Positions 25,135 through 45,044 of a stretch of 64,000 nucleotides of DNA are shown here, piece after piece. The stretch spans positions 2,848,001 to 2,912,000 of the forward strand of contig OY760937.1 of assembly GCA_963664225.1 (NCBI GenBank), given 5' to 3'. The translations under genes were made by a program, and so were the position numbers. This DNA is from Verrucomicrobiia bacterium (GTDB taxonomy: Bacteria > Verrucomicrobiota > Verrucomicrobiia > Limisphaerales > UBA1319). The notes under the pieces are model-generated. The model saw only the letters and a list, made by a program, of their open reading frames with translations, was not told the DNA's origin and searched no databases. Numbering within the stretch: the first letter of the stretch is position 1; every line of letters starts with the position of its first letter.

Positions 25135-26112
25135 TCAATTCGCCAGTAGCGGGCGAATGGTACGGTGACTGAGGCGCTTTTCGGCCAGGTTGCGCAAGCT
25201 TTCCAGAAAAACGGCGGTGAAGATAACGACGCTGATGACCATGGAATAGAGGTATGGATTGGCGTTCATGATGACGAGGCCGTTCTCAATGGTCTGAATC
25301 AGGAGAGCACCCAGCAATGTTCCAGGCAAAACGCTGCCTCGCCCCCCGAAGAGGCTGGTCCCGCCCAGCACAGCGGCGGCGATGGCGGCGAATTCTTTTT
25401 GCTCGCCGAATTTCGGTGACACCGCGCCGAGCTGGCCCAGCGAAACCATCGCGGCCACGGCGGCGCAAAGTCCGCTTATGAGATACACCTTTGTGAGTAT
25501 GATGCCAGTGCGCAAACCGGCCTTCCGGGCGGCCTCGACGTCGTGACCCACGGCATAGACCTGCCGGCCAAAGGTGGTGCGTGTGAGTGTGAGATGCGCG
25601 ACAACGAGCAGGCCGCCGAAGATCCATGCGGGCAAGGGCACGCCCAGGAGCTGCGCCGTGCCCAGTTGCAGAAAGCCATCGGGCAGATTCATCGCGCGGG
25701 TCTCCGTGATGCGCAGGCCAAGTCCGCGCCCGATAAACAGGGTGGCGAGTGTGACGATGAAGGCGACCACGCGGACTCGCGTGATGAAGAAGGCATTGAA
25801 CGCCCCACAGACGAGGCCGATCGCGAGCATCGCCAGCAGGGATATTGGCAATGGCAATCCTGCAAGCGCCATTTTCCCCGCCACCGCCGCAGCCACAAAC
25901 ATGATGGCGCCGACGGACAAATCCACCCCGGCCGTGAGCAATACGAAGGTCATTCCAATTGCGACTATCCCAGTCGAGGAAGACTGTACGAAGATATTCA
26001 CCAGGTTGCGCGGCTCCAGGAATTTCGGTGACTGTGCGCCAAAGAATACCAGCACCACCCCAAAAAGTAACAGGGGCGCAAAGTCGAGCAGACGTTGGGC
26101 AAAGCGGTTCAC
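25135..26112 (-). CDS. Monosaccharide ABC transporter permease (RbsC-like)
   Basis: GMTFVLLTAGVDLSVG, TFGRQVYAVG, AIAAAVLGGTSLFGGRG. Confidence 0.92.
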   Translation of the reverse strand: MNRFAQRLLDFAPLLLFGVVLVFFGAQSPKFLEPRNLVNIFVQSSSTGIVAIGMTFVLLTAGVDLSVGAIMFVAAAVAGKMALAGLPLPISLLAMLAIGLVCGAFNAFFITRVRVVAFIVTLATLFIGRGLGLRITETRAMNLPDGFLQLGTAQLLGVPLPAWIFGGLLVVAHLTLTRTTFGRQVYAVGHDVEAARKAGLRTGIILTKVYLISGLCAAVAAMVSLGQLGAVSPKFGEQKEFAAIAAAVLGGTSLFGGRGSVLPGTLLGALLIQTIENGLVIMNANPYLYSMVISVVIFTAVFLESLRNLAEKRLSHRTIRPLLAN

Positions 26113-27677
26113 GAGGCGCCCTCCGTGGTGAGCGTGGTTCCCAAGGCGGCGCGCAAAATGCGTTCACGATCGAATTGGGGACGCGTGAGATCGTCCACGA
26201 TTTCACCGCCATTCATCACGAGGATGCGGTCGCACAGGCCCATCAATTCTTCCATTTCCGATGAGATGACGAGAATGCCCGCACCCCGGTCGGCCAGCTC
26301 GTGAATGAGCCGGTAGATTTCAAACTTCGCACCCACGTCAATGCCGCGCGTGGGTTCGTCGAGGATGAGCACGCGCGGCTCGCAGAGCAGCCATTTGCCG
26401 AGGACCACTTTCTGCTGATTGCCGCCACTTAGAACGCGAACCGGTTGGGTGTCGCGCGTCTTGGCATCGAGCCGGACAATCTCCCGGATACGAGTGACGG
26501 CCGCGTCCAACGATTCTCTGGAAAGCCAGCGCACCGGCGCGCGCCCATGCTCCGGCAGAGTGGCGAGCGTAAAGTTATCGGCCACTGTGGCATCGAGACA
26601 CAGCCCCTCGGTACGGCGATTCTCGGTGAGAAAAGCCACACCGCGCCGGATCAGGGCTCCTGGCGTGAGACGGCGCAGGGTCTCACCTTCCAGACGCACC
26701 TCACCCGACGCGCGGGGATCGAGACCGAAGAGTATTCGCGCCAGTTCGGATCGGCCAGCACCCATCAGACCGGACAGGCCAAGAATCTCCCCGCGACTGA
26801 GCGTGAAAGAAATGTCTTCTACGACGCCGGGCTGTGACACGTTGCGGACTTCGAGAACAGGCGTGTTGGTATGCAGTCCAGCCTTTGGATCATTCACACC
26901 TGTCCGCAGTGGAGGCTTGCGCTCCGGGAAGACCTGGTTGAGGGTCCGTCCCACCATGAGCGAAACGAGCTTCTCGGTGGTGAACGTGGACGTCGCGCCT
27001 GAGCCAACCACCTCCCCGTCGCGCAACACCACAATCTCGTCGCAAAGCCGGAAGACATCCTCCAGCGTGTGGGAGATATAGATCATTCCCACGCCTCGTT
27101 CCTTGAGCCGTGCAATGAGCGAGAAAAGTCGCTCGGTCTCGCGAAAGCTAAGGGAAGTGGTCGGTTCGTCGAAAACGATGAGGCGCGCGTCGATGCTCAA
27201 AGCCTTGGCGATTTCCAGGAGCTGCCTTTCTCCTGCTGAAATGGTTTCGACAAGGCGATGAGGCGGAACGTCGAGACCCACCTCCCGCAGCAATTCAGCA
27301 GCGCGCTGACGCATTGCACTGCGGTTAATGAGCGGGGTGATGCCAACGCGCGGAAATTTCGTGAGAAATAGATTTTCGGCAATGCTCAGGTTGGGAAATA
27401 GATTCAACTCCTGATGAATGAGAGCAATGCCGTGGTCTTCCGCATCTTGCGGCGTAGCCGGCTTGAACTCGAGCCCATTCAAACGGATCTCCCCTTCATC
27501 CGCGGCCAGATTGCCGCCAAGAATATTCATGAGCGTTGATTTGCCGGCGCCGTTCTCGCCAACAAGACCCACCACGCGTCCCGCCTCGACCCTGCAGTTG
27601 ACGCCTTTCAAAACCCTCACGCCAAAGAACGCTTTTGAGATGCCGGCAAGCGAGAGAAGTTCGTGGCTTATTGTCAT
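26109..27677 (-). CDS. Monosaccharide ABC transporter ATPase (RbsA-like, two ATPase domains)
   Basis: GENGAGKS, FDEPT, GLMGAGRSE, LSGGNQQK, DEPTRGIDVGAK. Confidence 0.95.
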   Translation of the reverse strand: MTISHELLSLAGISKAFFGVRVLKGVNCRVEAGRVVGLVGENGAGKSTLMNILGGNLAADEGEIRLNGLEFKPATPQDAEDHGIALIHQELNLFPNLSIAENLFLTKFPRVGITPLINRSAMRQRAAELLREVGLDVPPHRLVETISAGERQLLEIAKALSIDARLIVFDEPTTSLSFRETERLFSLIARLKERGVGMIYISHTLEDVFRLCDEIVVLRDGEVVGSGATSTFTTEKLVSLMVGRTLNQVFPERKPPLRTGVNDPKAGLHTNTPVLEVRNVSQPGVVEDISFTLSRGEILGLSGLMGAGRSELARILFGLDPRASGEVRLEGETLRRLTPGALIRRGVAFLTENRRTEGLCLDATVADNFTLATLPEHGRAPVRWLSRESLDAAVTRIREIVRLDAKTRDTQPVRVLSGGNQQKVVLGKWLLCEPRVLILDEPTRGIDVGAKFEIYRLIHELADRGAGILVISSEMEELMGLCDRILVMNGGEIVDDLTRPQFDRERILRAALGTTLTTEGAS

Positions 27678-28678
27678 GGCGTTTGCACCCAAAGCGAACC
27701 GCGAACAACGAAACGGTTTCTCATCGCATCCAACACCGCGGCGAACAGAATTACGGAACCTTTGGCCATGGTGATCGAGAACTGCGAGAGGTTGAGCAGG
27801 TTCAATGCGTTATCGAGAACGGCAAGAAACAGCACGCCAAAGAACGTCCACGCAATTTTTCCTTTTCCACCGAAGAGACTCGTTCCGCCGACAACCGTCG
27901 CGCCGATGACATCCATGAGAATTTCATGGCCGAGCACCGGCGAGCCGGTTTCCATGCGGCCAGTCAACAGAATGGATGCGAGCGCCGCGCAAAGGCCGGA
28001 TACCACATATGCGGCAAAAGTGATCGCGCGAACGGGCACGCCGGATATGTGGGCGGTCGTCGCGTTTTGGCCGACCGCGTACAACCAGCGCCCATACACA
28101 GTGCGACGAAGCGCAAAGTGCGCAACAAGTGACGCGGCGAAAGTGACCGTAAGCGCGATTGGGAGTTGCTTGCCAATGGCCAGAAAGGAGGCGGGCAGAT
28201 TATAAATACTCCTGGACTGAGTCAGCCAGATCGCAAAGCCGCTGATGAACATCCGCGATGCCAGGGTCACAATAAACCCCGGCAGGTGCAAAAACGCCAC
28301 GACAAGTCCATTGGCCGCACCCAGTGCCACGCCCAGCGCGAGCATCGATATCAGGCCCATGGAAGTGACCACGATCCCGCTTTCCCCGGTCATCAACTTC
28401 GCCCCCATCACGCTGGTCAGGGCGATGATGGACGTGACGGAAAGATCGATGCCCCCCGTGATCATCACCACCGTCATTCCAATGGCCACGATCAGCAGCG
28501 GCAGCAGGTAGCCGAGAATGTTGAGCAGATTCGCTCCGCTCAGGAGACCGGGCGTGAACGGCGCCAGTGCAATGAACATCACCACCGTCAGTCCAAACAC
28601 CAGATATTCCGAAAGGACGAGGCCGGCCAGTTTGCCGGTGGCTCGTGGCGCGCCATGTGTGAGGGCCGGAGCGGTCAT
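27674..28678 (-). CDS. Monosaccharide ABC transporter permease
   Basis: GMTVVMITGGIDLSV, YGRWLYAVG, VVGGTSLFGGKG. Confidence 0.92.
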   Translation of the reverse strand: MTAPALTHGAPRATGKLAGLVLSEYLVFGLTVVMFIALAPFTPGLLSGANLLNILGYLLPLLIVAIGMTVVMITGGIDLSVTSIIALTSVMGAKLMTGESGIVVTSMGLISMLALGVALGAANGLVVAFLHLPGFIVTLASRMFISGFAIWLTQSRSIYNLPASFLAIGKQLPIALTVTFAASLVAHFALRRTVYGRWLYAVGQNATTAHISGVPVRAITFAAYVVSGLCAALASILLTGRMETGSPVLGHEILMDVIGATVVGGTSLFGGKGKIAWTFFGVLFLAVLDNALNLLNLSQFSITMAKGSVILFAAVLDAMRNRFVVRGSLWVQTP

Positions 28679-28721
28679 GCGTGGTTCCTGCGCGACATCC
28701 CTGCAACGCTGAACGGTCTTG

Positions 28722-29717
28722 TCATTTCTTCACATTTGCGCCCCACATGCGCGGCGCCATTTCCTTCAGGTTGCCTTGGTGAATCACAAAGCCAGGATCG
28801 AGAATGAGGTCGTTGACAGTTTTGCCATCACGTCTATCAAGCAGTGCCTGCACACTTTCCAGGGCCTCGAAATACACATCCTGCACACCGGTTGCGTCAA
28901 CATATCCATCCACGAGCATCCGGTAGGCGGTCGCATCGCCATCGAAGCCGCCGAGGATGATGTGGCCTGGTTCCCCAATTTTTTTGTAGCGTCCGGCGGC
29001 CTTCAATGCGGAGCTGATTGAAGGAAAGAGAAAGTCCGACGACGTGAAAATGAAATCTATGCCCGGATTGGCCTGCAAAGCGTTCGCAACGCCCGCTTGT
29101 GCCTTCTCCTGGTTCCACTCGCTGGGAACGCGTGCCACGACTTCGATGATGTCCTCGTTCCCTTTCAACGCGTCTTCGAAGCCGTCGCGCCGGCCAATCG
29201 CGTTGATGTCGCCCATGTCGCCGAGCACGACCATCGCCTTGTGCTTGCCGCCGGTTTTCTTGGCCTGCTCGATCATATGAGCCACGGTTTCCCGGGTGAG
29301 CTTTCGATTGTCGGCGACAACCGAAGTGGACTGCGTGTCGTTTTTGTCGGCCGGGCGATTGAAGAGCACGATGGGAATTTTCGCATCGTTCGCCGCGCGA
29401 ATCATGGGAATGCAGGTCTTCGCATCCTTTGGCACGAGGATGATTCCGTCCACGCCGCGCGCGATGAAGTTTTTCACCTGCTGCAACTGACGGCTCTCAT
29501 CGCCATCAGCCACGGCCTCAAGCACACCGATGTCGCGCTTCTTCAACTCGGCCTTAATCGCCTCGAAACCCGCCACCCAATACTCGGTCTGGAGTGTTTC
29601 AAAGGCTACGCCCACGGTGAGTTTCTTCGCGCCGCCAGAATCGGTTCCGGCGGGTTTGCCGCAACCACAGAGGAATGCGATCAAGAGAACAGGGAAAAGG
29701 CGCGATGCGATTTTCAT
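28722..29717 (-). CDS. Sugar ABC transporter substrate-binding lipoprotein (RbsB-like fold)
   Basis: Lipobox LCGC; FIARGVDGII, IPIVLFNR, RRDGF, GFDG; first gene of the ABC set. Confidence 0.92.
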   Translation of the reverse strand: MKIASRLFPVLLIAFLCGCGKPAGTDSGGAKKLTVGVAFETLQTEYWVAGFEAIKAELKKRDIGVLEAVADGDESRQLQQVKNFIARGVDGIILVPKDAKTCIPMIRAANDAKIPIVLFNRPADKNDTQSTSVVADNRKLTRETVAHMIEQAKKTGGKHKAMVVLGDMGDINAIGRRDGFEDALKGNEDIIEVVARVPSEWNQEKAQAGVANALQANPGIDFIFTSSDFLFPSISSALKAAGRYKKIGEPGHIILGGFDGDATAYRMLVDGYVDATGVQDVYFEALESVQALLDRRDGKTVNDLILDPGFVIHQGNLKEMAPRMWGANVKK

Positions 29718-29896: not shown

Positions 29897-32800
29897 TTAC
29901 CGGCTTATGAGCCGGTAGAATTGGCCGCTGCCTGCAAGTGAGAGACGCACTGTCTTTTTGTTGCCGTCAACGACTGGCGTCGAGCCCTCATCCGACCAGT
30001 CTCCCTGACTCAGGCCGGCGCGTGATTGAAGCTGGAAGTTCGAAGCCGCCTCCCAGGTGATCACAAGTTGGTTGCTTTCCCGCGCGGCGACGATCTTCGG
30101 CGATTCGGCCACAGGAACCCCTGCTGGCGCTTTCTGAACCGCCTGAATTTCCGCCAATGTGAGCACTTTGTTGAACACATTCAGTTCGTCCATCAAACCG
30201 CGGAAACAGCGGCTGTTCCCTGCCCCGGCCGCATTGCGGGCTCCATTGTCCACGGCGCTGAAGTTGCCTGCGGTTAATTGGCCGATGCTGTTGATCGGGC
30301 CTTGGGGATAATCCGCCGTGATATCAACCGCCGCAGCCTGCGAAGGAGAGCCAAAGTAGAAGCTGGCATTGGCTGTCGCCAATGTCCCGTCATAGGTGAC
30401 CGCAAAGAAGACCCAATTCTCATTGCCCGCCGCAGGGTCTGCGGTGATGCGCGGAGAACTGAGTGCCGCGCTGTATGGGTTTCCATCAGGCCATGTGTTT
30501 ACCCCCAGCCACAGCACGCCATCCGCCTGTTGCACCAGGTCGAAACCGCCGGAACCCAGTCCAGCCTGGCAGTAAAACACGCGGTTGCCGCCAGGACCGT
30601 ATTGCAGATCGCGGCTGTTCAACCAACCGGTCAGGGTGAAGGCTTGCATGGATCCCAGTGTGGGGGTGACGGAGGTCGTCAAGTCGAGAGCCCGGCCACC
30701 CTCGCCATCCGCAATCACGCCAAAGTCCAACGACGATGTGTTGGCGGTGGGGGCAAATGCCCCCGTGGGTGTCAGGTTGGTAAAGGCCGGGAATGCATTG
30801 GCCTGAACCAGGCTGGCGGCGCCGCCCAGATTGCCCAGGTTCGCCGTTGTGGTGCCACTTCCTTCGGAGAACGAGAGGAACACCTTGTGGTTATTCTCAG
30901 CCAGCACGGTCAAGGTCGAGCGCTGACTGGTGGCGGTGTTTTTGGAGTTCGTGACCAGAACCCAGACTTGGTCGCCGCTATCGGACACCGTCGCGCTGTT
31001 CAGCGTGTAATTCGCGTTGGTCGCGCCCGCAATGGCGGTTTCAACACCAGCGTGCTTTTTCCACCATTGAAAACTCAGAGGCGGGGTGCCGCTGGCAGTG
31101 ACTCCAAAGGTCGCGTTTTGGCCTGTGAAAATTTTCACACTTTGCGGTTCCTGCTGAATGGCCACCGGTTCAACGACGGCCGGTTTATAGGCCGGGGCCG
31201 TTTGTTGTGCCTGGATTTCGGTGAGTGTCAATGCCCGGTTATACACGTTAATCTCGTCCATCAACCCACGGAAACAACGGCTCCCGCCGCTGGGGCCGGT
31301 TTCTGTGCGCGCGCCCGCGATTGTGCTGAAGTTGCCAATGCTGAGCGGCCCGGTGCGCGCCACAAGACCGCGACTGTAATCGGCCGCGTAATCCAATTGC
31401 GCCTGCTGGCTGGGGGTGCCGAAATAATAACTCAGATTTCCAGATTCAAGCGTGCTGTCATAGGTGACCGCGAAGTAAACCCAATTGGCGGCGCCCGCCT
31501 CGGGATCGGCGGTAATTTTACCCACGGTGCTCGCCGGACCACCAGGGTTCGCATCCGGCCACTCGTTAATGCCGATTCGCAGCGAGCCATTGGCAAGCTG
31601 CACGAGGTCCACTCCGGCGCCACCGGGAGTTTCCAGCGCGAAAGCGATTCGGTTTCCGCCCCAGCCCTCATTCAAGTCTTTGCAATTAATCCAACCGGAG
31701 ATGGTGAACGACGCAAGCGGCCCCAGGGTATTGTCGAATGCATTGGTCACATCGATCGCCCGGCCGCCTTGTGAGGCGGCGATAACCCCGAAGTCCACGC
31801 ACGCGGTGTTCTCAGTAGGGACATAAGATCCCGTGGGAACATTGGCGGAAGTGGCGGGATATCCCTGAGCGATTGCATAAACGCCATTGCCCTCCAGGTT
31901 GCCGAGGTTGGTCACCGTCATGCCGCCCTCGGAAAACGACAGGGACACCTTGTGTCCGGACTCAGCCACAACCGTGAGAGTCGCAACATCACTCATCAGG
32001 TTCGCGGTTACTGAGTTGCCGACCTTCACGCGGAATTTCGCGCCGCTGTCGGCAAGTGTTACCGCGGCAATCGTGTACGTTTCATTGGTTGCACCGATAA
32101 TATCCACACCATCCCTTTGCCATTGATAGGTGAAAGGCGCAGCGCCATCGGCCTGCACGAGGAACGTCGCCGGCTGATTGGCGAAAACCTTGAGACTCGC
32201 CGGCGATTTGGCAATTGTGGCCGGCACAGGCGGCAACGCCCCGTTGAGCTGGGCTTGTTGAACCTCCGCCAGTGTCAGGGAACGATCGTAGATTTTGAAT
32301 TCATCCACGAGCCCGCGAAACACCCGACTGCCACCGTTGGGGCCCTGCTCATTGCGCGCGCCAACGACATCGCTGAAATTGCCGATGGTCAGCATGCCGG
32401 TGTTTTCGATGAGACCGCCGTTAGCAAGGCCTCCCTTGTAGTTATTCACGGTGTCAATCGAAGCCAGTTTGGTGGGACTGCCAAAGAAATACTTCATGTT
32501 TCCAGAGTCCAGCGCGGAATCGTAAGTGGCCGCAAAGAACACCCAGTTGCCGGGCCCCGCCTGGGGATCCGCCTTCAGCACGCCAACGGAGCTGGAAGGC
32601 CCGCCGCTGCCGCCATCAGGCCATTGATTGATGCCGATGCGCAAGGCGCCATTGCCGAGCTGTACCAGGTCGAAGCCCGCACCGCCGGGACCGTCCAACG
32701 CAAATGCAATGCGATTGCCACCCCAGCCTTCGTTGAGATTGCGGGCGTTCAGCCAGCCGCAGATGGTAAGGGCATTAAACGTGCCCAACGTGCCCAACGG

Positions 32801-33139
32801 GTCGGTGGTTAAATCCACAGAGCGGCCGCCCTGGCCTGCAACGATGTCGCCAAAGTCCACCGAGGAGCTGTTGTTCGCAGGGGCAAAGGGACCGCTGGGA
32901 ACGAGATTGGTGAAGGTTGGAAACGCATCGGGTTGGGCCAGGGTGGCGGACCCGGCCAGCGAACCGCCATTCACAGTGATTGCCCCGTTGACTTCCGAGA
33001 AGCGCATCTCGACGACCGGAGTTGGCAATGCCGCGTTAAGAAGAGTGCTGCATAGCGAGAGGGCGGCCAGAGAAAAGGTCGCCCAGGCAGGCCTGCGACT
33101 TCTCGCATACTCACCCTGAGACTTTGTGGTTGAATGCAT
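29897..33139 (-). CDS. Secreted protein: three LamG/ConA-like jellyroll domains alternating with two Ig domains
   Basis: Signal peptide; three repeats of T.TGW.N...GGNR...W.FFA.TYD...FRGL.DE...Y...LTL.E; Ig motifs ATF.V.A.G..P...QW; C-terminal ...QFYRLISR. Confidence 0.85.
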   Translation of the reverse strand: MHSTTKSQGEYARSRRPAWATFSLAALSLCSTLLNAALPTPVVEMRFSEVNGAITVNGGSLAGSATLAQPDAFPTFTNLVPSGPFAPANNSSSVDFGDIVAGQGGRSVDLTTDPLGTLGTFNALTICGWLNARNLNEGWGGNRIAFALDGPGGAGFDLVQLGNGALRIGINQWPDGGSGGPSSSVGVLKADPQAGPGNWVFFAATYDSALDSGNMKYFFGSPTKLASIDTVNNYKGGLANGGLIENTGMLTIGNFSDVVGARNEQGPNGGSRVFRGLVDEFKIYDRSLTLAEVQQAQLNGALPPVPATIAKSPASLKVFANQPATFLVQADGAAPFTYQWQRDGVDIIGATNETYTIAAVTLADSGAKFRVKVGNSVTANLMSDVATLTVVAESGHKVSLSFSEGGMTVTNLGNLEGNGVYAIAQGYPATSANVPTGSYVPTENTACVDFGVIAASQGGRAIDVTNAFDNTLGPLASFTISGWINCKDLNEGWGGNRIAFALETPGGAGVDLVQLANGSLRIGINEWPDANPGGPASTVGKITADPEAGAANWVYFAVTYDSTLESGNLSYYFGTPSQQAQLDYAADYSRGLVARTGPLSIGNFSTIAGARTETGPSGGSRCFRGLMDEINVYNRALTLTEIQAQQTAPAYKPAVVEPVAIQQEPQSVKIFTGQNATFGVTASGTPPLSFQWWKKHAGVETAIAGATNANYTLNSATVSDSGDQVWVLVTNSKNTATSQRSTLTVLAENNHKVFLSFSEGSGTTTANLGNLGGAASLVQANAFPAFTNLTPTGAFAPTANTSSLDFGVIADGEGGRALDLTTSVTPTLGSMQAFTLTGWLNSRDLQYGPGGNRVFYCQAGLGSGGFDLVQQADGVLWLGVNTWPDGNPYSAALSSPRITADPAAGNENWVFFAVTYDGTLATANASFYFGSPSQAAAVDITADYPQGPINSIGQLTAGNFSAVDNGARNAAGAGNSRCFRGLMDELNVFNKVLTLAEIQAVQKAPAGVPVAESPKIVAARESNQLVITWEAASNFQLQSRAGLSQGDWSDEGSTPVVDGNKKTVRLSLAGSGQFYRLISR

Positions 33140-33291
33140 GGTTGTTTCCTTTGTTTCCTTTGGTTTTTGAAATCTTCGTTGGATTGACGCCTTCGGCGTC
33201 CCACCAACAAAGGCGGTTGATTTTGCTTTTTGATTCAGGTTGAAATGATTTTGCATCTGGCTTCGCGGCGGCGGCGGTCGAAAGGCATCCG

Positions 33292-34203: not shown

Positions 34204-34443
34204 GATGGATATGAATGGGTATTATCGTCTTGCGCCATAGGTGGGATGCTCTTTATCTCCTCATCCGCAACCCAAGCCCGGACAGCCTTCAAACAAACTG
34301 CGGCAACGTTAATCGGCCAGGCGGCGGGGAACCCTGCCACGAACTCAAACGAATTTGACGTCACTTTGTGTTGCGTCGGAAATCGGCTCATAAACGGTTG
34401 CGGCTTTATTCTCTAAGGATGACATTTGCGAATGTCTGGTGCT

Positions 34444-34472
34444 AGAATAGGACGATCAAAGAATAGGACGAT
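34444..34472. promoter_or_regulatory. Perfect 13-bp direct repeat AGAATAGGACGAT x2 in divergent intergenic region (candidate operator)
   Basis: Copies at 34444-34456 and 34460-34472 (16-bp period) between the uptake and catabolic operons. Confidence 0.5.
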
Positions 34473-36626: not shown

Positions 36627-37439
36627 ATGCAACTGGGCATAGGCTCTTATACTTACACTTGGGCCGTTGGCGTGCCAGGTCATCCACCGGCGCATCCGAT
36701 GACCGCGCTGGAATTACTCGATGAGGCTCATAAGCTCGATGTGCGCGTCGTCCAGATTTGCGACAACCTGCCGCTGGCCAATTTGAATGAAGCCGATATT
36801 GCGGCATTTGAACAAAAGGCGCGTCAATTGGGAATTGCCATCGAACTCGGCACGCACGGGTTGGAATCCTGCAACCTATTGACCCACCTGAGGCTGGCTC
36901 AGCGTTTTGGCTGCTCGTTCCTCCGTCTCGTCATCGATGCCAACGGGGATGAACCCTCGCCAGAACAGGCTGTGGAAAGGTTGAAGGAATTCATGCCGGA
37001 ATTTCAGCGCGCCAAGGTCAGGCTGGCCATCGAAAACCATGACCGGTTCACCGCGGCCACACTCGTTCGCATGATCGAGCAGCTTGGGCCCGATCGCGCC
37101 GGCATCTGTCTGGATACGGCCAATTCACTGGGCGCGTTGGAAGGCCCGCGTATCGTGGTCGAAACGCTCGCGCCCTACACCTTGAATTTGCACATCAAGG
37201 ACATCACCATCCGTCGTGTGCCCTCCAAAATGGGCTTTATCGTCGATGGCTGTGCGGCTGGCAGGGGGCACCTCGATGTGCCATGGATCCTTGAATGCCT
37301 GCGCGCGCATGGCCGGAATCCCAACGCAATCGTCGAATTATGGACTCCTTACGGGCCTGCGCTCGATGAGACCATTGCCCGGGAACGGTCCTGGGCTGAA
37401 GAAAGCGTCCGCAATTTGCGCGCATTGATGCCGGCCTGA
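36627..37439 (+). CDS. oiaC: Xylose-isomerase-like TIM barrel, probable 3-oxo-isoapionate decarboxylase
   Basis: LGIGSYTYTW, VQICD, ELGT.GL, LAIENH, GICLDTAN, LHIKD; directly downstream of apnO. Confidence 0.65.
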   Translation: MQLGIGSYTYTWAVGVPGHPPAHPMTALELLDEAHKLDVRVVQICDNLPLANLNEADIAAFEQKARQLGIAIELGTHGLESCNLLTHLRLAQRFGCSFLRLVIDANGDEPSPEQAVERLKEFMPEFQRAKVRLAIENHDRFTAATLVRMIEQLGPDRAGICLDTANSLGALEGPRIVVETLAPYTLNLHIKDITIRRVPSKMGFIVDGCAAGRGHLDVPWILECLRAHGRNPNAIVELWTPYGPALDETIARERSWAEESVRNLRALMPA

Positions 37440-37505: not shown

Positions 37506-39485
37506 ATGCAGTCGGCGATTATGAAACCAATTCAAATGAATTCCATAACTCCACCAACGTCCGTCACGTTGCACGCCGGACCGCTTGTCCTATTGTTCGA
37601 GCCGGACACAACTTTCCTGCGCCGCATCAGCCTCAACGGTGTGGAGATCCTTCGCTGCATTTATGGTGCGGTGCGGGATCGCAATTGGGGAACCGTCCCG
37701 CCACAAATCCATGATTTGAGTGTGCTTCCGGAAAAGGATTCCTTCCAACTTCATTTCGGTGCGGCCTGCAAGGAAGGTCCGATTGAATTCGTTTGGAAGG
37801 CAAGTATTCATGGGGCCTCGGATGGCACCATCCAGTTCGATTTCGAGGGTGAGGCCCTCACCGCTTTTTTGCGCAATCGCATTGGCCTCTGCGTCCTTCA
37901 TCCCTTGACGGGTTGCGCAGGGGAGCCCTGCCTGGTGGAACATATGGATGGTTCCGTCGAATGCGGCCAATTTCCGAAACACATTTCGCCTCACCAGCCT
38001 TTCGAGCAAATCCGTGCCATCACCCATGCGGTGGTCCCAGGTCTCAAGGCCGAAGTGCGTTTTGAAGGCGAGATCTTCGAAATGGAAGATCAGCGGAATT
38101 GGACCGACGCATCGTTTAAAACCTATTGCACGCCGCTGTCCAAACCTTTCCCGGTGCTCATCGAAAAAGGAACGCGCATCCATCAATCGGTCACCTTGCG
38201 CCTGATTGGCAATCCGACAACCGTGGCCGCCCCCGCACCAAAACCATGGATCGATGTCGATGTTCCCACGGCGCCCGATCGCGATTTGCCGCCCGTTGGC
38301 CTGTGCCTTTCAAGCCCGGCACGCCGGATTTCCTCCATAATGATGGAGCGCCTGCGTGCGCTTTCCCTGTCGCATTTGCGGGTTGATTTGCACATGGGCC
38401 AGACGGACTGGAGGACGCATTTGCGATATGCGGCCGAAGTGCTCAGCGGACTCCCAACGTGCCGATTGCACCTGGCACTCTTTCTGACGGCCAGCTTCCA
38501 GACGGAATTGGAGCAACTCCGGGATGAATGTCTTCACTTTGATTCTGGCAACCTGCAATGGAGTGCCGCGGATACCGTTTCTTTATGGCTTGTCCATTGC
38601 GAGAGCGTTTCCAGAATCCCTGAACCAATGCTGAAGGCCGCCATGGTCATGCTGAAACTGGTTGCACCGAGAGCGCTTTGGGCCTCGGGCACCAACGCCC
38701 ATTTCGCCGAACTCAATCGAAATCGCCCCTATCCTGAGTTTCCCATGCTTCCTTGTTATTCCATGACTCCACAAGTTCACGCGAACGACGACCTTTCGCT
38801 CTTTGAAAATCTGGAAGCTCAACTGCACACTGTGGAATCGTTGGAAGAATTCTCGAGCCGCCCCGCGGTCATTTCCCCCATCACACTGCGGCCGCGCTTT
38901 AATGCAGTGGCTACGGGAACAGACATCGTTGCATTGGAGCCAAAACTGCCCGCCTCGGTGGATCCCCGCCAATTGACACTCCAGGGCGCCGCCTGGACCT
39001 TGGGAAGTCTCTCCAGGCTTTGTGTATCGAAGAAAGTCCATAGCCTGACCTACTATGCCACAGCAGGCTGGCACGGTGTCATGGAATACGATGAAGGTTC
39101 CCCATTCCCTGATCAGTTTCCCTCCTGTCCCGGAACTGTCTTCCCCCTTTATCATGTCTTTAAACAACTGGCTGGCAGCACCAGAACAACGCCAACCCAT
39201 GTCAGCGAACCGGACCATTTGGCGGCATTAACGCTCTTCGATCGCCAGGGGAATCGTTCAGTTCTACTGGCCAACCTGACCCTGGCTCCACTGGAAGTTC
39301 GCATCCGCTCCGCTTCACCTGCTTCAACGGTTCACTGGAAGTTTCTGGACGATGCCAATGCCCACCAAGCCGCGGTCAACCCTGAATCGTTTGCGGAGCA
39401 ACCGCACTCGTCAGCGCAAATGGTGGGCAATGCATGCAAACTGTTAATCCCCGCCTACGCATTCGCGCGGGTCACATTTGATTGA
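37506..39485 (+). CDS. apnL: D-apionate lactonase-like protein
   Basis: 659 aa; LHAGPL...LRRI...E.LR.I...VRDRNWGT, NRIGLCVLHP, FEMEDQRNWTDASFKTY, FAELNR.RP, VHANDD, DPRQ. Confidence 0.8.
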   Translation: MQSAIMKPIQMNSITPPTSVTLHAGPLVLLFEPDTTFLRRISLNGVEILRCIYGAVRDRNWGTVPPQIHDLSVLPEKDSFQLHFGAACKEGPIEFVWKASIHGASDGTIQFDFEGEALTAFLRNRIGLCVLHPLTGCAGEPCLVEHMDGSVECGQFPKHISPHQPFEQIRAITHAVVPGLKAEVRFEGEIFEMEDQRNWTDASFKTYCTPLSKPFPVLIEKGTRIHQSVTLRLIGNPTTVAAPAPKPWIDVDVPTAPDRDLPPVGLCLSSPARRISSIMMERLRALSLSHLRVDLHMGQTDWRTHLRYAAEVLSGLPTCRLHLALFLTASFQTELEQLRDECLHFDSGNLQWSAADTVSLWLVHCESVSRIPEPMLKAAMVMLKLVAPRALWASGTNAHFAELNRNRPYPEFPMLPCYSMTPQVHANDDLSLFENLEAQLHTVESLEEFSSRPAVISPITLRPRFNAVATGTDIVALEPKLPASVDPRQLTLQGAAWTLGSLSRLCVSKKVHSLTYYATAGWHGVMEYDEGSPFPDQFPSCPGTVFPLYHVFKQLAGSTRTTPTHVSEPDHLAALTLFDRQGNRSVLLANLTLAPLEVRIRSASPASTVHWKFLDDANAHQAAVNPESFAEQPHSSAQMVGNACKLLIPAYAFARVTFD

Positions 39486-39589: not shown

Positions 39590-40570
39590 GTGAAGCCGAT
39601 TACAACTGACATAGCCCTTAAAGATGGTTTTTCGAGCCTGCTCGAAATTTGTCGCAGGCTGAACTTCGAGCCGCACAATATCGCGCACCAACTCGATGCC
39701 CGTGGCCGTTATGAAGTCGAATTGGACCGGGAGTTTCCGTTTCTCATCAAGCTCTTTCATTATTCATCACGGCAGCACACACGCGGCGCCACATGGCATG
39801 AACGTCTCGAGTTGTTCATGCCTCTGGATGGGAATGCCAGGTTCCAGATGGGCGAAAAGGAAGTGCACCTCGAACAGGGAGACATCCTGGTGGTGGACAA
39901 CATGAAACTCCATCAAGTGGTGGACTTCCGAGGTTTCGACACCCGAGTCATAGTGATCAGCTTCATGGCGGAGTTTGTTTACAGCCTCGGATCGCCATCG
40001 CAAGATTATGGTTTTCTACTTCCATTTTACTCGCGCACAGGCAATCGCCCGCACGTCCTGCACCTCACCGACCCCGATGCCCCGTCCGTCTATCAAGCCA
40101 TTGCCAGGCTCCTGTCCATTTCCTTTGAAGAAAAGGACCGCCAGTTTTATCAAATTGGGTGCAAGGCATTCTTCCTGGAAATGCTCTACCACCTCGCGCG
40201 ACATTTCCGGGGATCTGAACTGCTTAAATGGGAATTTGTCCGCCAGCAGCAGCGTTCCTTGCGCCTCAAACCTCTCTTCGACCATATCAGCCGAAGTTTT
40301 TCAGACAAGCTGTCCGTGGCGGAAGCCGCTCGCATCGCCCGCATGAGTCCGCCCCAATTCATGAAGACCTTCAAAAAAGTCGCGGGCATGACCCTCATTT
40401 CCTATATCCATCACGTTCGGCTTTCCAGCGCGGTCAACCTCCTGACGGATACCGACCTGTCCATCGCGGAAATAGCTGCCCGCGTCGGTTTCACAGACCA
40501 AAGTTACTTCGATAAGCGCTTCAAAGCCTCCTTTGGCCGGTCCCCGAAACAATTCCGATCCTCGGAATAG
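39590..40570 (+). CDS. AraC-family transcriptional regulator (cupin + HTH)
   Basis: WHERLEL cupin sensor; AARIARMS..FMKTFKK..G, SIAEIAARVGFTDQSYFDKRFK..FG.SP. Confidence 0.92.
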   Translation: MKPITTDIALKDGFSSLLEICRRLNFEPHNIAHQLDARGRYEVELDREFPFLIKLFHYSSRQHTRGATWHERLELFMPLDGNARFQMGEKEVHLEQGDILVVDNMKLHQVVDFRGFDTRVIVISFMAEFVYSLGSPSQDYGFLLPFYSRTGNRPHVLHLTDPDAPSVYQAIARLLSISFEEKDRQFYQIGCKAFFLEMLYHLARHFRGSELLKWEFVRQQQRSLRLKPLFDHISRSFSDKLSVAEAARIARMSPPQFMKTFKKVAGMTLISYIHHVRLSSAVNLLTDTDLSIAEIAARVGFTDQSYFDKRFKASFGRSPKQFRSSE

Positions 40571-40783: not shown

Positions 40784-42847
40784 TCACTTGGCCAGCGGAG
40801 TCCAGCGAAACATCATTACGTGATTCAATCCAGCGTTTTCCAGGAACATAACGTATTCGCCGCTTTTACGGAGCGTCACGTTCAGGGCGTTGTCTGAGTC
40901 AACGCAACCACCACTCCCCTTGAAGCCGTTGATGTCGGGCCGGATCGTGCCGACGCAACCTCCATCATCCAGCCGGTGGACACGGACAAGGCCGTAGCCG
41001 TATGCGACGAAGAGGTATTTACCGCAGGCCTGCATCGCCACCGGCGCGCCGCCGCCGTAGTTGATATTGGGAGTGTATGACTTGTCGTTGAGCGGCAAAT
41101 TGATCGTCCACCGCTTGATCCTTCGGGCTGGATTGGACCAATGCTCAAAACAGATCAAAAGGTTGCAGGCATTCTCCTCGGTGCCGGGCGAACCGCCAGC
41201 GATCAGCACATCGTCTCCGGGGATGTAGAACAGCCGGCGAAGCCGGTCGCCGGTGAACTCCGTCGGGTAAGGGTATGACACCTCGGAGGCCCGGCGATAG
41301 ATCGGGTTACCGTGCGGATCAAGCCCCTCGCAAGGAAGATGGAAAATGGTCCCGTCCCCAGAGCATTGCCAGATGCCAGCAGCGACGTCCAGGTGCATGA
41401 ACCCCCAACGGGGCTTCCGTCCCACTGAGGCGAACTCTGAGGGGTCAGGGACTCCGTCGCCGTTGCCGTCGGTCCAGATGAGGGTTTCAGCGTCCTCCGG
41501 CCAACGCTTGCCGTTCTCCGGGCGCCAGGTGCTGGCTCCCGCCATGTACCCGCACGGCACAGCGACACACCCTTGGCCGAACTTGTAAATCTCCAGATTG
41601 CCCGTGCCCTGGGCGCCGCAGTAGAGGAAGAGTTTGCCACCGATCCGCCGCACGCCATTGATCAAGCGATGGCTCGGGCCGTGGAGATCGGTCACCCGGC
41701 AATCGAGGGGATACTTGAAGCGATCTACTGTCAATCCAGCCAGGGACTGTTCACTGCCAGGCGGTTTGCTCCAGTCCATGATGAAGAGGTTTTCCTTGGT
41801 GTAAACGACGTTCTCATCGGCTGGGTCAGTGCAGGCGGTGTCCAGCCAATTACCCAATCCATATACATGCCAGAGTCGTTCGCCCGCGGGGGAATAGGCC
41901 TCGATCAAAGCGTTGTACCAGGAGCCAAAGACAGTGCCGACGTAGAGATTACCGGCTGCGTCGAACCCAAGGCCTCGGATCCAGTGGAATTTCCTGGGCT
42001 GGCCTTTCCCCGGCTCGCCCGAGAAGATGCCGCCCTCCTCACCGAACGTGCCCACCTTTCTGGGAATGTTTGAGACATCGTAGGTCCATATCTGGCTATG
42101 TCGGTTCAACCCACCGACCAACAGGTAACCCTTGGAATCCACCGCCAACGCGCAAGGGCGCTCGAAGTCCGCGATCTCCGGTCCGGGCTTACCATCCTTT
42201 GAAAACGAGAGGATCTTGAGGCCGCCGGTCTCGAAAGGCTCCCTGCCAGATGTGCCTTGAATGACCCAGATCCGACCGTCCGCACCAATCGCAACCGGTC
42301 CCGGGCTTGGGACGGCCAATGCGCGTACCTCCTTCATCGTCGACGTCGCCAGAACACGAATCTTGCCGGTGGCGTAGTCGCTCATGTAGAGCTCGCCACC
42401 CTTGAGGGCCAAGCCCTTGATATCGCCGCCGGTAATCGGCGAGCGGTTGTAGGATTCGTCTCCACGGCGGGTCCGAAACAGGCCAATCCCAGTGCCAATG
42501 TAAATGTAGGAGTCGTCTGCGGCGACCGCTGACGAGCTGCTGCCAAAACCGCTGTCATAGTCGTATTTGGTGACAAACCGGCCGTCCTTATACGAGGCGA
42601 CCCCGCCGTAGCCCTCAGCCACGCCGGAGGTGAAGACCGTCCCATCCGGTGTTACGGAAAGGCTGCTTATGTTGACTGGCACTGACTGATGCCCCTGATC
42701 CCTGCTGAACGAGTTCGCCAGCCAGGAATGAATCACCGAACCCGGCATGCTGCCGCCAGTGGCGGGTGGTACGGTATTCGTCGAGTTTTGGGCTTGAACC
42801 GCCGTGACGATGAGCAGGGAAATGGAGAGAATGACGATGTTTGTCAT
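40784..42847 (-). CDS. Secreted hypothetical protein with NHL/beta-propeller-like repeats
   Basis: Signal peptide (VQA/Q); repeats such as VTPDGTVF, IGADGRIWV, AVDSKGYLLV, GFDAAGNLYV; W.D.NGDG motif; coupled to the upstream LamG gene. Confidence 0.7.
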   Translation of the reverse strand: MTNIVILSISLLIVTAVQAQNSTNTVPPATGGSMPGSVIHSWLANSFSRDQGHQSVPVNISSLSVTPDGTVFTSGVAEGYGGVASYKDGRFVTKYDYDSGFGSSSSAVAADDSYIYIGTGIGLFRTRRGDESYNRSPITGGDIKGLALKGGELYMSDYATGKIRVLATSTMKEVRALAVPSPGPVAIGADGRIWVIQGTSGREPFETGGLKILSFSKDGKPGPEIADFERPCALAVDSKGYLLVGGLNRHSQIWTYDVSNIPRKVGTFGEEGGIFSGEPGKGQPRKFHWIRGLGFDAAGNLYVGTVFGSWYNALIEAYSPAGERLWHVYGLGNWLDTACTDPADENVVYTKENLFIMDWSKPPGSEQSLAGLTVDRFKYPLDCRVTDLHGPSHRLINGVRRIGGKLFLYCGAQGTGNLEIYKFGQGCVAVPCGYMAGASTWRPENGKRWPEDAETLIWTDGNGDGVPDPSEFASVGRKPRWGFMHLDVAAGIWQCSGDGTIFHLPCEGLDPHGNPIYRRASEVSYPYPTEFTGDRLRRLFYIPGDDVLIAGGSPGTEENACNLLICFEHWSNPARRIKRWTINLPLNDKSYTPNINYGGGAPVAMQACGKYLFVAYGYGLVRVHRLDDGGCVGTIRPDINGFKGSGGCVDSDNALNVTLRKSGEYVMFLENAGLNHVMMFRWTPLAK

Positions 42848-43626
42848 TTGTTCGAATCAGGTCTTTTTGGAGACGAGCTCGGAGATTGCGAGACCATCCT
42901 TAACACCTCTGCATCACTGATGGCCAGGTTGTAAAGCCGCACGTCATCGAGACGTCCATGAAAACAATCCACCCAGGATTTTCCCTGGGAATTAGAGTTG
43001 CCTCCAATGAGAAGAGGATTGTGATCCGCGAATTTGAACGGAATCGTGCAAGGTGCCGATTTCACCAGGCGCCCGTTAACGTAAAGCCGGAGCATGGCGT
43101 TGTCATAGGTTCCGGCAAGGTGAATCCACTCACTGGTGGGCAGGTCTTCGTCGCTCTTGATATTCTGGTAATGCGCGCCGTCCGGATCCACGGAGAACAG
43201 CGCTTTGTTCTTCACTACCGCCAGCCCGAAGTATTCCGACGCTCCATCCTTCACTTCACGCGACAGGACGGTGTTCCAAGTGGTGTCGGCATTGCGATTC
43301 ACCCAGGCGGTTACACTGATGCCGCTCTTGAAGTCGTCCAACAGGGCGGTATGCGGAACTTCGATCAGCGCATCCTGGTGGCATTCGATGCCTCCTCCCG
43401 CCTTTCCTGCGGCAGGGACGGCACCCCGCAATATGCCATCGTGGCCATTTCGGGAAGTGTCCTTCGCGATGTCGTTTCCCGCTGCGTCGAAACTCCATGC
43501 GGCAACCAATTCGCCGCTCGCAGATTCGTCCGCGCTGACGGCGACAGTCCAGCCGGCGCAACCCAACGCCACGAACACACTGACGAATAAGTTTTTCATA
43601 AGATCTGAAGAATGTGAATGACTCAT
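42844..43626 (-). CDS. Secreted LamG/ConA-like domain protein
   Basis: LVAAWSFD, D.S.NG..G, SVTAWV, WIHLAGTYD, LYVNG, FHGRLDDVRLYN. Confidence 0.85.
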   Translation of the reverse strand: MSHSHSSDLMKNLFVSVFVALGCAGWTVAVSADESASGELVAAWSFDAAGNDIAKDTSRNGHDGILRGAVPAAGKAGGGIECHQDALIEVPHTALLDDFKSGISVTAWVNRNADTTWNTVLSREVKDGASEYFGLAVVKNKALFSVDPDGAHYQNIKSDEDLPTSEWIHLAGTYDNAMLRLYVNGRLVKSAPCTIPFKFADHNPLLIGGNSNSQGKSWVDCFHGRLDDVRLYNLAISDAEVLRMVSQSPSSSPKRPDSNK

Positions 43627-45044
43627 TGTTTGCCTGTGGTATCAAGCACCAGCACCCAGTCGCCATCGGTCGGCGGCTCGAAAGCGATGCGCTTCTTTTC
43701 AACAAACTCACCAATGCGCAGGGCCTCGCCATTGCCGGGATTGAACCACCACGCGTTCACCACGGTGCCGGAGAGTTTGGTTAGATCGATCGTGAGCTTT
43801 CGCTTCGTGGGCAGATAGCTCAGCGCAAAGGAGCCGTCGTTCGCCAGTGCGGTCACTGCATAGTTGTTGGTCGCGTACACGCCGCGGCCCTCAACGGCCA
43901 CAACGTTCCGCACGTCGGGCATGAGCTTCCACCAGGGGCGGGATTCCAGGAGGGCGCGAAAATGTTTCAAGCTGGCCGCTCCCGGCTGTGCCATCACCTG
44001 GCGCCAGTTCGGCGGCAAAATCCAGTTTGGCGAGCCGTAGGCGTGACCGCAACCGCCACTCAGCACGCACGAGTAAGCGTTTTTGCGCGCCTGCACCGCA
44101 TTGCCCCATGAATCATGCTCGCCTTCGTAGGTGGATTCACCCAGGAAAAACGGACGCACAGGAATTTTGGCAAATTCGGCATGGCTGACTTCGTAAACAT
44201 CCGGCATGTCCTGGGTCCACGCCTTGTTGAAACCACGAAAATAGGTATAGACCATCGAAACATCCAGCCAGCGTTCGTCCGCAGGCCAAATATCAGTGCT
44301 CGAATGCGAGGAGGAGGCGTGATACGTGATGAGTTGTTGGGGTGCGGTGTCTTTCAATCCAAGACCAAGCTGGCGTATCTCCTCGCGGGCATTGTCAGGG
44401 TCGATGTCACCGCCCAGAATCCAGATCACGTTGGCAAACTTGCCGTAGCGTTTTCCCAGCCAGCGCCCGAACTCGCGGGACTTTGCGGCCCCATTGGCGT
44501 TGAGCGGCTTGGGGGCGCCGTCCTTCTCCACACCGGCCCAGCCTTCTCCACAACATCCCGACCACGCCGGAGCGATGGCCAGAAGCAGGTTCAACTTCTC
44601 CGCCTGCGCCACGACCTTGTCCACATGTGCAAAATACTTCTCATTCGGCCGGGCGAAATCCTGTTCCGGGAGCGTCCCGGCAAACGGCGATTCCCCCGCG
44701 CGATTGGTCCCGCCAAGGAAGCCGGTAAGCATGACCTGGACGGTATTGAAACCTTGGGCACGGCGACCCGCGAGATATTCGGCGGCTTCTGCTTCGGTCA
44801 GTTTAAGAAAAATCATCCAGGCCGTGTCGGCGTTATAGAGGTAGGGCGTCCCGCGCTGGTCCTGTAGATGACGGCGATTCTCACTGATCTTGAGCGGAAA
44901 GGCGGGTTTTTTATCGGGGACAGATAGCAGCATGCCGGGAAGCCCCGCTACACCAGGATTCTTTTCCATGGACGGTGCTTCCGCTGTTCCGCCGTTAGCC
45001 ACACTCATCACCACCAAAGCCATTACCAATAAAAACGGGTTCAT
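43623..45044 (-). CDS. DUF4038 / GH140 apiosidase-like glycoside hydrolase with C-terminal collagen-binding-like domain
   Basis: Signal peptide; P.LYNADTAW, RRAQGFNTVQ, PNEKYFAHVD, WILGGD, ITYH, GESTYEGE, GHAYG, WWFNP..G...GDWVLVL. Confidence 0.8.
   Translation of the reverse strand: MNPFLLVMALVVMSVANGGTAEAPSMEKNPGVAGLPGMLLSVPDKKPAFPLKISENRRHLQDQRGTPYLYNADTAWMIFLKLTEAEAAEYLAGRRAQGFNTVQVMLTGFLGGTNRAGESPFAGTLPEQDFARPNEKYFAHVDKVVAQAEKLNLLLAIAPAWSGCCGEGWAGVEKDGAPKPLNANGAAKSREFGRWLGKRYGKFANVIWILGGDIDPDNAREEIRQLGLGLKDTAPQQLITYHASSSHSSTDIWPADERWLDVSMVYTYFRGFNKAWTQDMPDVYEVSHAEFAKIPVRPFFLGESTYEGEHDSWGNAVQARKNAYSCVLSGGCGHAYGSPNWILPPNWRQVMAQPGAASLKHFRALLESRPWWKLMPDVRNVVAVEGRGVYATNNYAVTALANDGSFALSYLPTKRKLTIDLTKLSGTVVNAWWFNPGNGEALRIGEFVEKKRIAFEPPTDGDWVLVLDTTGKQ

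Follow-up and report, generated by a model that had tools for sequence, protein, structure and literature searches.

The question raised by the locus described here is whether a verrucomicrobium carries, within about 20 kb, the genes to release, import and oxidise D-apiose, a rare sugar of plant cell walls that anchors the side chains of rhamnogalacturonan II (RG-II) and decorates apiogalacturonan and many plant glycosides. The DNA analysed, referred to below as the window, is a 64-kb stretch (positions 2,848,001 to 2,912,000 of contig OY760937.1, assembly GCA_963664225.1) of a Verrucomicrobiia genome that consists of a single contig of 5.78 Mb. An initial annotation had placed in it, within 20 kb, a GH140-like (glycoside hydrolase family 140) hydrolase, a monosaccharide ATP-binding cassette (ABC) system, four adjacent catabolic genes, an AraC regulator and several lectin-like proteins. 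Following open reading frame (ORF) calling and searches of Pfam and NCBIfam, all of these were recovered in place, as 14 ORFs in three transcription units at window positions 25135-45044. We consider it likely that these form a D-apiose utilisation locus, with the three transcription units arranged around one AraC regulator, and the most likely role of the locus is to let this soil-type verrucomicrobium import and oxidise D-apiose.

Unit A, on the minus strand, comprises the genes for a prepilin-type protein, a large LamG protein and a solute-binding protein, followed by those for two permeases with a double ABC ATPase between them. Unit B, on the plus strand and divergent from unit A across a gap of 429 bp, encodes a Gfo/Idh/MocA protein, a PGDH_C protein, an AP_endonuc_2 triosephosphate isomerase (TIM) barrel, a 659-aa protein and the AraC regulator. 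Unit C, on the minus strand, encodes a PF13204 GH140 protein followed by a Laminin_G_3 protein and one of 687 aa. There are 4-nt overlaps between successive genes, and the GH140 is translationally coupled to the other two proteins. Judged by eye, signal-like hydrophobic N-termini are present on the GH140, small LamG, 687-aa and binding proteins (lipobox-like in the binding protein), and the four unit B enzymes are without a signal-type N-terminus. The system had been called SusCD-free, and SusC and SusD families were indeed not found by Pfam among the 14 locus proteins and 24 other window ORFs.

Predicted catabolic enzymes encoded by unit B

The assignment to apiose starts from four adjacent genes which match ApsD, ApnO, OiaC and ApnL by sequence, by active-site residues in the case of ApnO, and by conserved synteny. 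These three lines support the identities that the genes had been given initially. ApnO, OiaC and ApnL, and also the binding protein of unit A, are single-copy in the genome.

The Gfo/Idh/MocA protein (34633-35673, plus strand) is the candidate D-apiose 1-dehydrogenase, ApsD. It matched PDB entry 5uhw over its full length (E 6e-84), with the next PDB match at 3.6e-24. We take 5uhw to be the A. radiobacter ApsD of Carter et al., whose 2018 work is said to have defined the oxidative D-apiose pathway. The candidate is 40% identical to the Gfo protein of the R. leguminosarum apiose cluster, which itself matches 5uhw at E 4e-193, and the next-best Gfo paralogue in the genome is only 24% identical to it.

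The PGDH_C protein (35763-36623, plus strand; PF16896 E 2e-57) matched PDB entry 5t57 over residues 3-274 (E 4e-84), an entry labelled apnO in the excerpted text of a preprint, and is 53% identical to the R. leguminosarum ApnO and 40% identical to that of Erwinia. Fifteen active-site residues of ApnO were mutated by Watanabe et al. 2026 (PMC13753588, cited throughout from excerpts). In the numbering of AaApnO these include the metal ligands of site II (His113, Glu183 and His222) and of site I (Glu183 and Glu188), the NAD contact Asp68 and the substrate contacts His116 and Ser239, and Asp92 is also in the list (PMC13753588). In a three-way alignment the R. leguminosarum ApnO has all 15 residues at the same numbers as AaApnO, and 12 of the 15 are identical in the window protein (Asp68, Asp92, His113, His116, Phe133, Glu183, Glu188, Phe218, His222, Val225, Phe238 and Ser239), including all metal, NAD and substrate ligands. 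The window protein differs at three listed positions (S187A, L226P and C242A), of which Ser187 is described as not fully conserved (PMC13753588). We infer that the PGDH_C protein, ApnO, acts as a D-apionate oxidoisomerase and converts D-apionate to 3-oxo-isoapionate.

The xylose-isomerase-like TIM barrel (36627-37439, plus strand; PF01261) starts 4 nt past the ApnO stop. In an Erwinia cluster of the order DAK-TIM-OiaC-ApnO, the ApnO-adjacent TIM barrel shares 32% identity with the window barrel, and the automatic name 3-oxoisoapionate decarboxylase is attached by JGI to 14 of the 120 homologues listed. No solved relative of this type of barrel was found in the PDB comparison. NCBIfam has no family for the window ApnO or OiaC, a silence which is uninformative because the ApnO and OiaC of the reference clusters match no model either. 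The barrel is presented as a candidate OiaC-type 3-oxo-isoapionate decarboxylase.

The 659-aa protein (37506-39485, plus strand) appears to be a divergent member of the D-apionate lactonase family, ApnL. It matched NF049900 (D-apionate lactonase) with E 8e-89 and 298.7 bits over model positions 13-593 of 595, and is 45% identical to the rhizobial ApnL over the N-terminal 221 aa and 27% identical over 246 C-terminal aa. The rhizobial ApnL itself scores 1056.5 bits with this model, compared with 250 and 366 for two other ApnO-linked members from outside the Proteobacteria. Since ApnO-linked homologues also score low, NF049900 is narrow, and the window protein belongs to a wider family that is consistently linked to ApnO. 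In the loci examined, the ApnL family is restricted to ApnO contexts.

Distribution of ApnO loci in other genomes

A scan of species-representative genomes for ApnO gave 191 relatives, of which the best 80 loci were kept, a selection made by pattern and not at random. These loci were searched by tblastn with the window and reference proteins (E <=1e-10, at least 40% query coverage), so that the counts below are lower bounds. Because the sample was selected by pattern and the genomes are mutually related, the counts are read as associations and not as statistics. The 80 loci come from at least six phyla, with Verrucomicrobiota, Acidobacteriota, Chloroflexota, Planctomycetota, Armatimonadota, Rubrobacter, Poribacteria and a few Proteobacteria represented. 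When 401 genomes of the phylum, this one included, were sampled evenly, ApnO was present in 3.

OiaC was found in 42 of the 80 loci, OiaK in 25 and OiaX in 21; OiaC never occurred together with OiaK or OiaX (0/80), and 13 loci had none of the three. A Gfo protein at 40% identity or more was present in 39 loci and ApnL in 35, and OiaC, Gfo and ApnL occurred jointly in 15. A GH140 gene lay within 10 kb of ApnO in 17 loci, when about 1.4 of 80 would be expected from the density of this genome (5 genes in 5.78 Mb). The grouping of GH140 with apiose genes is beyond chance. GH140-positive loci include 7 with OiaC and 8 with OiaK or OiaX; among 31 full-length loci GH140 is present in 6, and the apiosidase-family gene recurs near such clusters in at least five phyla.

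An apiosidase-family gene is thus repeatedly tied to oxidative apiose catabolism and to a single conserved type of ABC binding protein, a wiring seen in Verrucomicrobiota, Acidobacteriota, Planctomycetota, Chloroflexota and Armatimonadota. As a separate observation, an outer-membrane barrel of the TonB type (CarboxypepD_reg plus OMP_b-brl_4, about 1125 aa) stands beside GH140 or apiose genes in 5 of the 80 loci, including L027 and L066 (an Acidobacteriota metagenome-assembled genome, MAG), and no SusD was noticed there.

Importer, regulator and divergent intergenic region

The importer genes of unit A, all on the minus strand, encode a CUT2-type BPD_transp_2 permease (permease 2, 25135-26112; PF02653 E 4e-37), an ATPase with two nucleotide-binding domains (26109-27692; two PF00005 stretches), a further permease (permease 1, 27674-28678; PF02653 E 5e-27) and a Peripla_BP_4 solute-binding lipoprotein (28722-29717; PF13407 E 4e-44). 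Together with the BPD_transp_2 permeases and the fused double ATPase, the binding protein makes up a set that fits the CUT2 monosaccharide ABC type. The ATPase was under the cut-off on the AraG, XylG and RbsA models of NCBIfam, and as the matches to substrate-specific NCBIfam equivalogs were all far below their cut-offs, these models leave the ligand of the importer unassigned.

The genomic context of the importer points to apiose. The ATPase is 39% identical to that of the R. leguminosarum apiose cluster, homologues of permease 1 occur in 23 of the 80 ApnO loci and those of permease 2, at 31-69% identity, in 22. The binding-protein type is present at 55% identity or more in 19 of the 80 loci, and in the sample of 401 genomes of the phylum it was found in 2, both of them ApnO-positive. 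These results support the view that the ABC system is of the type travelling with ApnO, in line with the monosaccharide importer initially proposed, and make its binding protein a candidate D-apiose binder.

The AraC-family regulator (39590-40570, plus strand) carries a cupin/AraC_binding sensor domain. AraC was found in 7 of the 80 ApnO loci, and orthologues with 59-66% identity head apiose operons in three relatives (L005, L010 and L006); another stands beside GH140 in the metagenome locus L096. The link between this regulator and apiose, also part of the initial annotation, is supported by these orthologues inside the operons of relatives.

The divergent gap between units A and B (34204-34632) holds a perfect tandem direct repeat, AGAATAGGACGAT, with copies at 34444-34456 and 34460-34472 that lie 3 nt apart. 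A promoter-like site is located at 34419-34448, and its -10-like hexamer is overlapped by the repeat. The AGAATAGGACGAT pair occurs once in the genome. Near-matches to AGAATAGGACGAT in the window (16, against a shuffle mean of 9.45) are not clearly above expectation, and promoter-like sites are not enriched (6 found, against a mean of 8.3). As a conserved operator the repeat was rejected, being absent at two mismatches or fewer from the loci of 14 relatives, save for single matches in coding regions. Because of this lack of conservation, naming it as a candidate AraC operator is only a guess.

The GH140 enzyme and its genomic paralogues

The first gene of unit C (43623-45044, minus strand) encodes a GH140 with a C-terminal Collagen_bind_2 domain. 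Membership of the family is clear (PF13204 E 7e-73, 246.4 bits against a cut-off of 26.5 bits), and the C-terminal beta-sandwich, PF12904, scored 60 bits. Asp213 (in ILGGD) and Glu303 (in FLGES) align with Asp187 and Glu284 of BT_1012, which correspond to positions 167 and 264 of the 3kzs chain as counted by hand on the printed alignment; the roles of this pair are, in the source paper, predictions from structural alignment. The protein matched PDB entry 8t9w ('Apiosidase') at 7e-49 and BT1012 (3kzs/5msy) at 8e-31. From its sequence, the most likely activity is that of a beta-D-apiofuranosidase.

The genome holds five PF13204 genes. Another of these, a paralogue near 5.00 Mb (approximately 5004332-5005660, L086:9309-10769), 2.1 Mb from the apiose genes, matched 8t9w at 7e-131 and BT1012 (3kzs/5msy) at 1.5e-79. 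The 17 ApnO-linked GH140s are 45-71% identical to this canonical orthologue and 30-35% identical to the window GH140. The initial annotation's release enzyme thus stands as to family and catalytic pair, but it is not the GH140 type that accompanies ApnO elsewhere. As a member of a divergent subfamily it may differ in specificity from BT1012, and we infer that it represents a second GH140 subfamily, whose preference for linkage or aglycone probably differs.

L107 and L114 are two metagenome loci in which a homologue of the window type (75-79% identical) and a canonical GH140 form a tandem. The second of these also has an apiose-type ABC ATPase (59%) and permease (54%), so that both GH140 types, parts of the importer and a homologue of the 687-aa protein, described below as a propeller, are brought together there. 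In both loci the two GH140 genes are separated from the propeller homologue by genes of family GH127 (L107:4634-6721 and L114:7631-9319). A GH127 member of B. thetaiotaomicron, BT1003, acts on RG-II chain B.

Two observations on the other paralogues may be added. The canonical gene at 5.00 Mb shares its gene run with those of a DUF4832 protein and of a 1026-aa protein that has no Pfam family, and Gfo-like and AP_endonuc_2 genes are near. Elsewhere, at L089:9151-12267, this genome encodes a 1038-aa protein in which a GH140 catalytic domain is joined to DUF5060 and to a glucuronyl-esterase-like domain (GCE_fung).

Proposed pathway and alternative explanations

From the family assignments and the synteny we propose the following activities, transported ligand, regulation and natural substrate. 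The secreted divergent GH140, with the help of the LamG and propeller proteins, would act outside the cytoplasm and cut apiose, or fragments that end in apiose, from apiosides. Free periplasmic D-apiose would then be imported by the binding lipoprotein, the two permeases and the double ATPase. In the cytoplasm, ApsD would oxidise apiose with NAD+ to apionolactone, and the ApnL-like lactonase would hydrolyse this to D-apionate. ApnO is expected to turn D-apionate into 3-oxo-isoapionate by an oxidation and an isomerisation at its two-metal site, and the OiaC-type barrel would decarboxylate the product to L-erythrulose. This scheme amounts to two entry steps added to route 3 as summarised by Watanabe et al. 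2026 (ApnO-OiaC-LerK-EryH-EryI, ending in D-erythrose 4-phosphate; PMC13753588), with the kinase and the isomerases necessarily supplied from elsewhere or replaced by another route. Control of the units is assigned to the AraC protein, with apiose as its probable signal and the divergent 429-bp gap as its probable site of action.

Several observations weigh against this reading. ApnO is promiscuous in vitro and accepts D-erythronate, D-ribonate and L-rhamnonate (PMC13753588), and the score of the ApnL-like protein, 298.7 bits, is far under the 750-bit equivalog cut-off of NF049900. The binding protein is distant from solved ones, with weak matches to 7e7m (1e-25) and 5ibq (6e-18), and just 28% identical to the binding protein of the rhizobial cluster. 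The window GH140 is a divergent paralogue whose type stands beside ApnO in none of the 80 loci. Finally, Erwinia protein probes detected LerK, EryH and EryI neither in the window nor among the 80 ApnO loci.

In an alternative that we regard as unlikely, only the importer, the four enzymes and AraC make up the apiose system, free apiose is scavenged, and the GH140-LamG-propeller genes and the LamG and prepilin-like genes of unit A are unrelated and serve another glycan. The absence of the window type from the 80 ApnO loci and the position of the ApnO-linked orthologue 2.1 Mb away favour this explanation, and four of the five GH140 genes are elsewhere in the genome, three of them in neighbourhoods with carbohydrate-active enzyme (CAZyme)-type genes or domains (GH78, DUF4832 and the fused glucuronyl esterase). 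By tblastn the large LamG, small LamG, propeller and prepilin-like proteins were found in 0 of 80 ApnO loci; the large LamG and prepilin-like proteins thus have no counterpart there. At least 12 paralogues of the prepilin-like protein are encoded in the genome, which makes its membership of the apiose system doubtful. Free apiose does exist, as excerpts of an RG-II preprint describe apiose freed by BT1012 among the sugars secreted by B. thetaiotaomicron and state that most Flavobacterium strains tested do not metabolise it, with Bacteroides and most of these RG-II degraders leaving apiose in the medium. Against scavenging alone, however, stands the recurrence of the GH140 family within 10 kb of ApnO (17 of 80 loci, with about 1.4 expected). 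Moreover, a single locus, L096, unites an AraC orthologue (66%), a homologue of the large LamG protein (50%), a GH140 and a LamG-propeller fusion, and L114 unites the apiose-type ATPase and permease with both GH140 types and the propeller. Both metagenome loci argue for keeping unit C within the proposed D-apiose utilisation locus.

It is very improbable that the four-gene cluster serves another sugar or acid, such as D-ribose/D-ribonate or a tetronate, with the side activities of ApnO being physiological and the GH140 coincidental: the kcat/Km of AaApnO with D-ribonate, D-erythronate, L-lyxonate and L-rhamnonate does lie at 123-274 per min per mM (PMC13753588, Table 1), ApnL is under its equivalog cut-off and the weak matches of the binding protein to solved ones assign it no ligand, but with D-apionate the values for characterised ApnO enzymes are 77-520 per min per mM (Table 1 of the same paper), the dehydrogenase is specifically related to 5uhw and the rhizobial ApsD and not to other Gfo paralogues, the ApnL family keeps to ApnO contexts in the loci examined, and the apiosidase-family gene recurs across phyla near these clusters.

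Downstream steps and pectin backbone enzymes

The locus had been called complete, and this was an overstatement. As predicted from its genes, the pathway encoded by the locus ends at L-erythrulose, and LerK, EryH and EryI are absent from the window and from the 80 loci as described above. A DAK kinase, a TIM-type isomerase or RpiB was found in 0 of 80 ApnO loci, and thus in none of the 42 OiaC-bearing loci within the fetched flanks. Nor was a conserved downstream kinase found among the other neighbour families of OiaC loci, each of which occurs in 7 loci at most: short-chain dehydrogenases/reductases (7), an epimerase, GntR, a split transketolase (4) and the TonB-type barrel.

In the genome as a whole, the Erwinia probes detected one DAK-family kinase, one TIM match and three RpiB matches, none of them near the locus. 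The sole DAK kinase (Dak1 plus a Dak2-like part) is at genome positions 3185927-3187797 (L085), about 274 kb past the window end and beside an aldolase of the DeoC/LacD family. It is a candidate, as yet unproven, for the L-erythrulose kinase.

The initial annotation had further proposed a polysaccharide substrate, RG-II or apiogalacturonan, and this part is not upheld. No backbone-active pectinase is present in the locus, the pectate lyase family PL1 (PF00544) was not found genome-wide (completeness 96%), and GH28 (PF00295) gave three weak matches genome-wide. Matches to GH127 (9), GH106 (10, some of them in one frame) and GH78 (at least one) were obtained across the genome. The organism looks like a specialist of side chains.

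Comparison with known systems

The plasmid cluster of Erwinia sp. E602 (L004) has the order MFS-DAK-TIM-OiaC-ApnO, MFS being a major facilitator superfamily transporter, with rpiB near, and matches the layout of route 3 (PMC13753588). Like it, the window has ApnO with an adjacent AP_endonuc_2 OiaC and is without the OiaK/OiaX branch. Unlike it, the window has an ABC importer in place of the MFS transporter and is without a DAK-type LerK, a TIM-type EryH and an RpiB-type EryI. The window adds ApsD and ApnL to route 3, and therefore the starting compound would be apiose and not apionate.

In the rhizobial pRle248e cluster (L002) the order is OiaX-OiaK-ApnO-SBP-DUF2291-ATPase-permease-ApsD-ApnL-DhaKL, SBP being the solute-binding protein. 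ApsD, ApnO, ApnL and a CUT2 ABC importer are common to this cluster and the window, whereas the rhizobial pathway ends in a kinase and a RuBisCO-like decarboxylase and that of the window in OiaC. The rhizobial cluster also has DUF2291, a regulator other than AraC and no glycoside hydrolase; the window has no DUF2291, an AraC regulator and a GH140.

L005 and L010, from MAGs of uncultured Verrucomicrobiota, have AraC-GH140-ApsD-ApnO-OiaC-SBP-permease-ATPase-permease on one strand. The gene families shared with the window are 54-75% identical, AraC and the binding protein included. However, the GH140 of these loci is canonical (66-71% identical to the 5.00-Mb paralogue) and that of the window is divergent, with LamG and propeller partners. 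Further, the importer and enzymes of the window are divergently oriented, with LamG and prepilin-like genes inserted, when everything in L005 and L010 is on one strand.

With the RG-II polysaccharide utilisation locus of B. thetaiotaomicron, which includes BT1012, the window shares the glycoside hydrolase family and the conserved pair corresponding to Asp187 and Glu284, but SusC/SusD, a hybrid two-component system and other RG-II enzymes are absent from the window locus. Another difference is that the window locus encodes apiose catabolism, whereas B. thetaiotaomicron secretes apiose. Given that this species releases apiose and that most Flavobacterium strains tested do not use it, according to the excerpts of the RG-II preprint, the consumer of apiose in soils and waters becomes an ecological question.

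The architecture had initially been thought undescribed. For the link to GH140 this holds within the literature searched, in which no description of a GH140 gene joined to apiose catabolic genes was found, subscription journals being mostly outside it. It does not hold for the catabolic pathway, nor for its clustering, since Watanabe et al. 2026 (PMC13753588) describe genes of routes 2 and 3 as lying often in one cluster with those for ApnL and for a putative dehydrogenase. The locus is a known pathway in a new architecture, and its core chemistry is not new. The most original leads, each a candidate for experiment, come from the propeller partner with its high conservation, a second subfamily of GH140, the family of apiose binding proteins and the missing L-erythrulose step.

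LamG, propeller and prepilin-like proteins

The 687-aa protein (40784-42847, minus strand) is a double beta-propeller according to its structure model, and no Pfam family was found in it. Its start overlaps by 4 nt the stop of the small Laminin_G_3 protein (42844-43626, minus strand; PF13385 E 1e-29). Its nearest Atlas neighbours are NHL/BceP-like, and 102 relatives were found at E <=0.001 among 8000 scored candidates. Many homologues are 60-93% identical and belong to Verrucomicrobiota and Planctomycetota, with proteins of Tundrisphaera and Paludisphaera among them, and in some the propeller is joined to Laminin_G_3, PF06439 or CBM-type domains. In 34 mostly short metagenome loci around propeller relatives, GH140 was present in 8 and the small LamG in 3. 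In L096 the LamG and propeller parts form one 956-aa ORF, downstream of the AraC gene, a canonical GH140 and the homologue of the large LamG protein, and a LamG-propeller fusion is also found in P0128.

An AlphaFold model of the propeller was obtained with a predicted local distance difference test score (pLDDT) of 88.9 and a predicted template modelling score (pTM) of 0.88. Foldseek searches with this model returned generic tandem WD/propeller chains alone, with template modelling scores of 0.27-0.47. VIA-align identified residues 44-331 as a six-blade NHL propeller (9jur_A, Z 26.8, root-mean-square deviation 2.5 over 240 residues within model positions 44-318) and barely covered the C-terminal half; lactonases, a peptidyl lyase, lectins and Bacteroides nutrient-binding proteins followed a few Z units lower. 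Since the NHL fold is common to lactonases, lyases, lectins and binding proteins, no function is assigned to the propeller, either as an enzyme or as a binder. We entertain, tentatively and as a rather doubtful possibility, that the GH140-LamG-propeller operon is an unrecognised apioside module, in which the propeller would be a new carbohydrate-active enzyme and not a passive binder and the GH140 would act on a new linkage, and that the many OiaC clusters without LerK, EryH and EryI use an undescribed route from L-erythrulose.

The two remaining genes of unit A are on the minus strand. The large LamG protein (ORF 29897-33511) has three Laminin_G_3 stretches and an Ig domain by Pfam, with a signal-like segment after Met124, and its likely start is at about 33142. 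The prepilin-type protein (ORF 33292-34203; N_methyl and DUF1559-like, PF07963 and TIGR02532) probably starts at the Met right before GFTLIELL, at about 34083. With these internal starts the overlap of the two ORFs vanishes.

Other genes of the window

The remainder of the window contains resistance-nodulation-division (RND) efflux systems, regulators, a tripartite ATP-independent periplasmic (TRAP) transporter and housekeeping genes. The two RND sets, each with an outer-membrane factor, a membrane-fusion protein and an AcrB-type pump, are at 3-4371 and 13221-19387, and between them lie a cyclic nucleotide (cNMP)-binding histidine kinase and a fusion of a response regulator with a pyridine-nucleotide-disulphide oxidoreductase. 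Just past the GH140 promoter region, a 1972-aa ORF on the plus strand (45439-51357) combines a CotH kinase-like domain with five stretches of Lamin Tail Domain.

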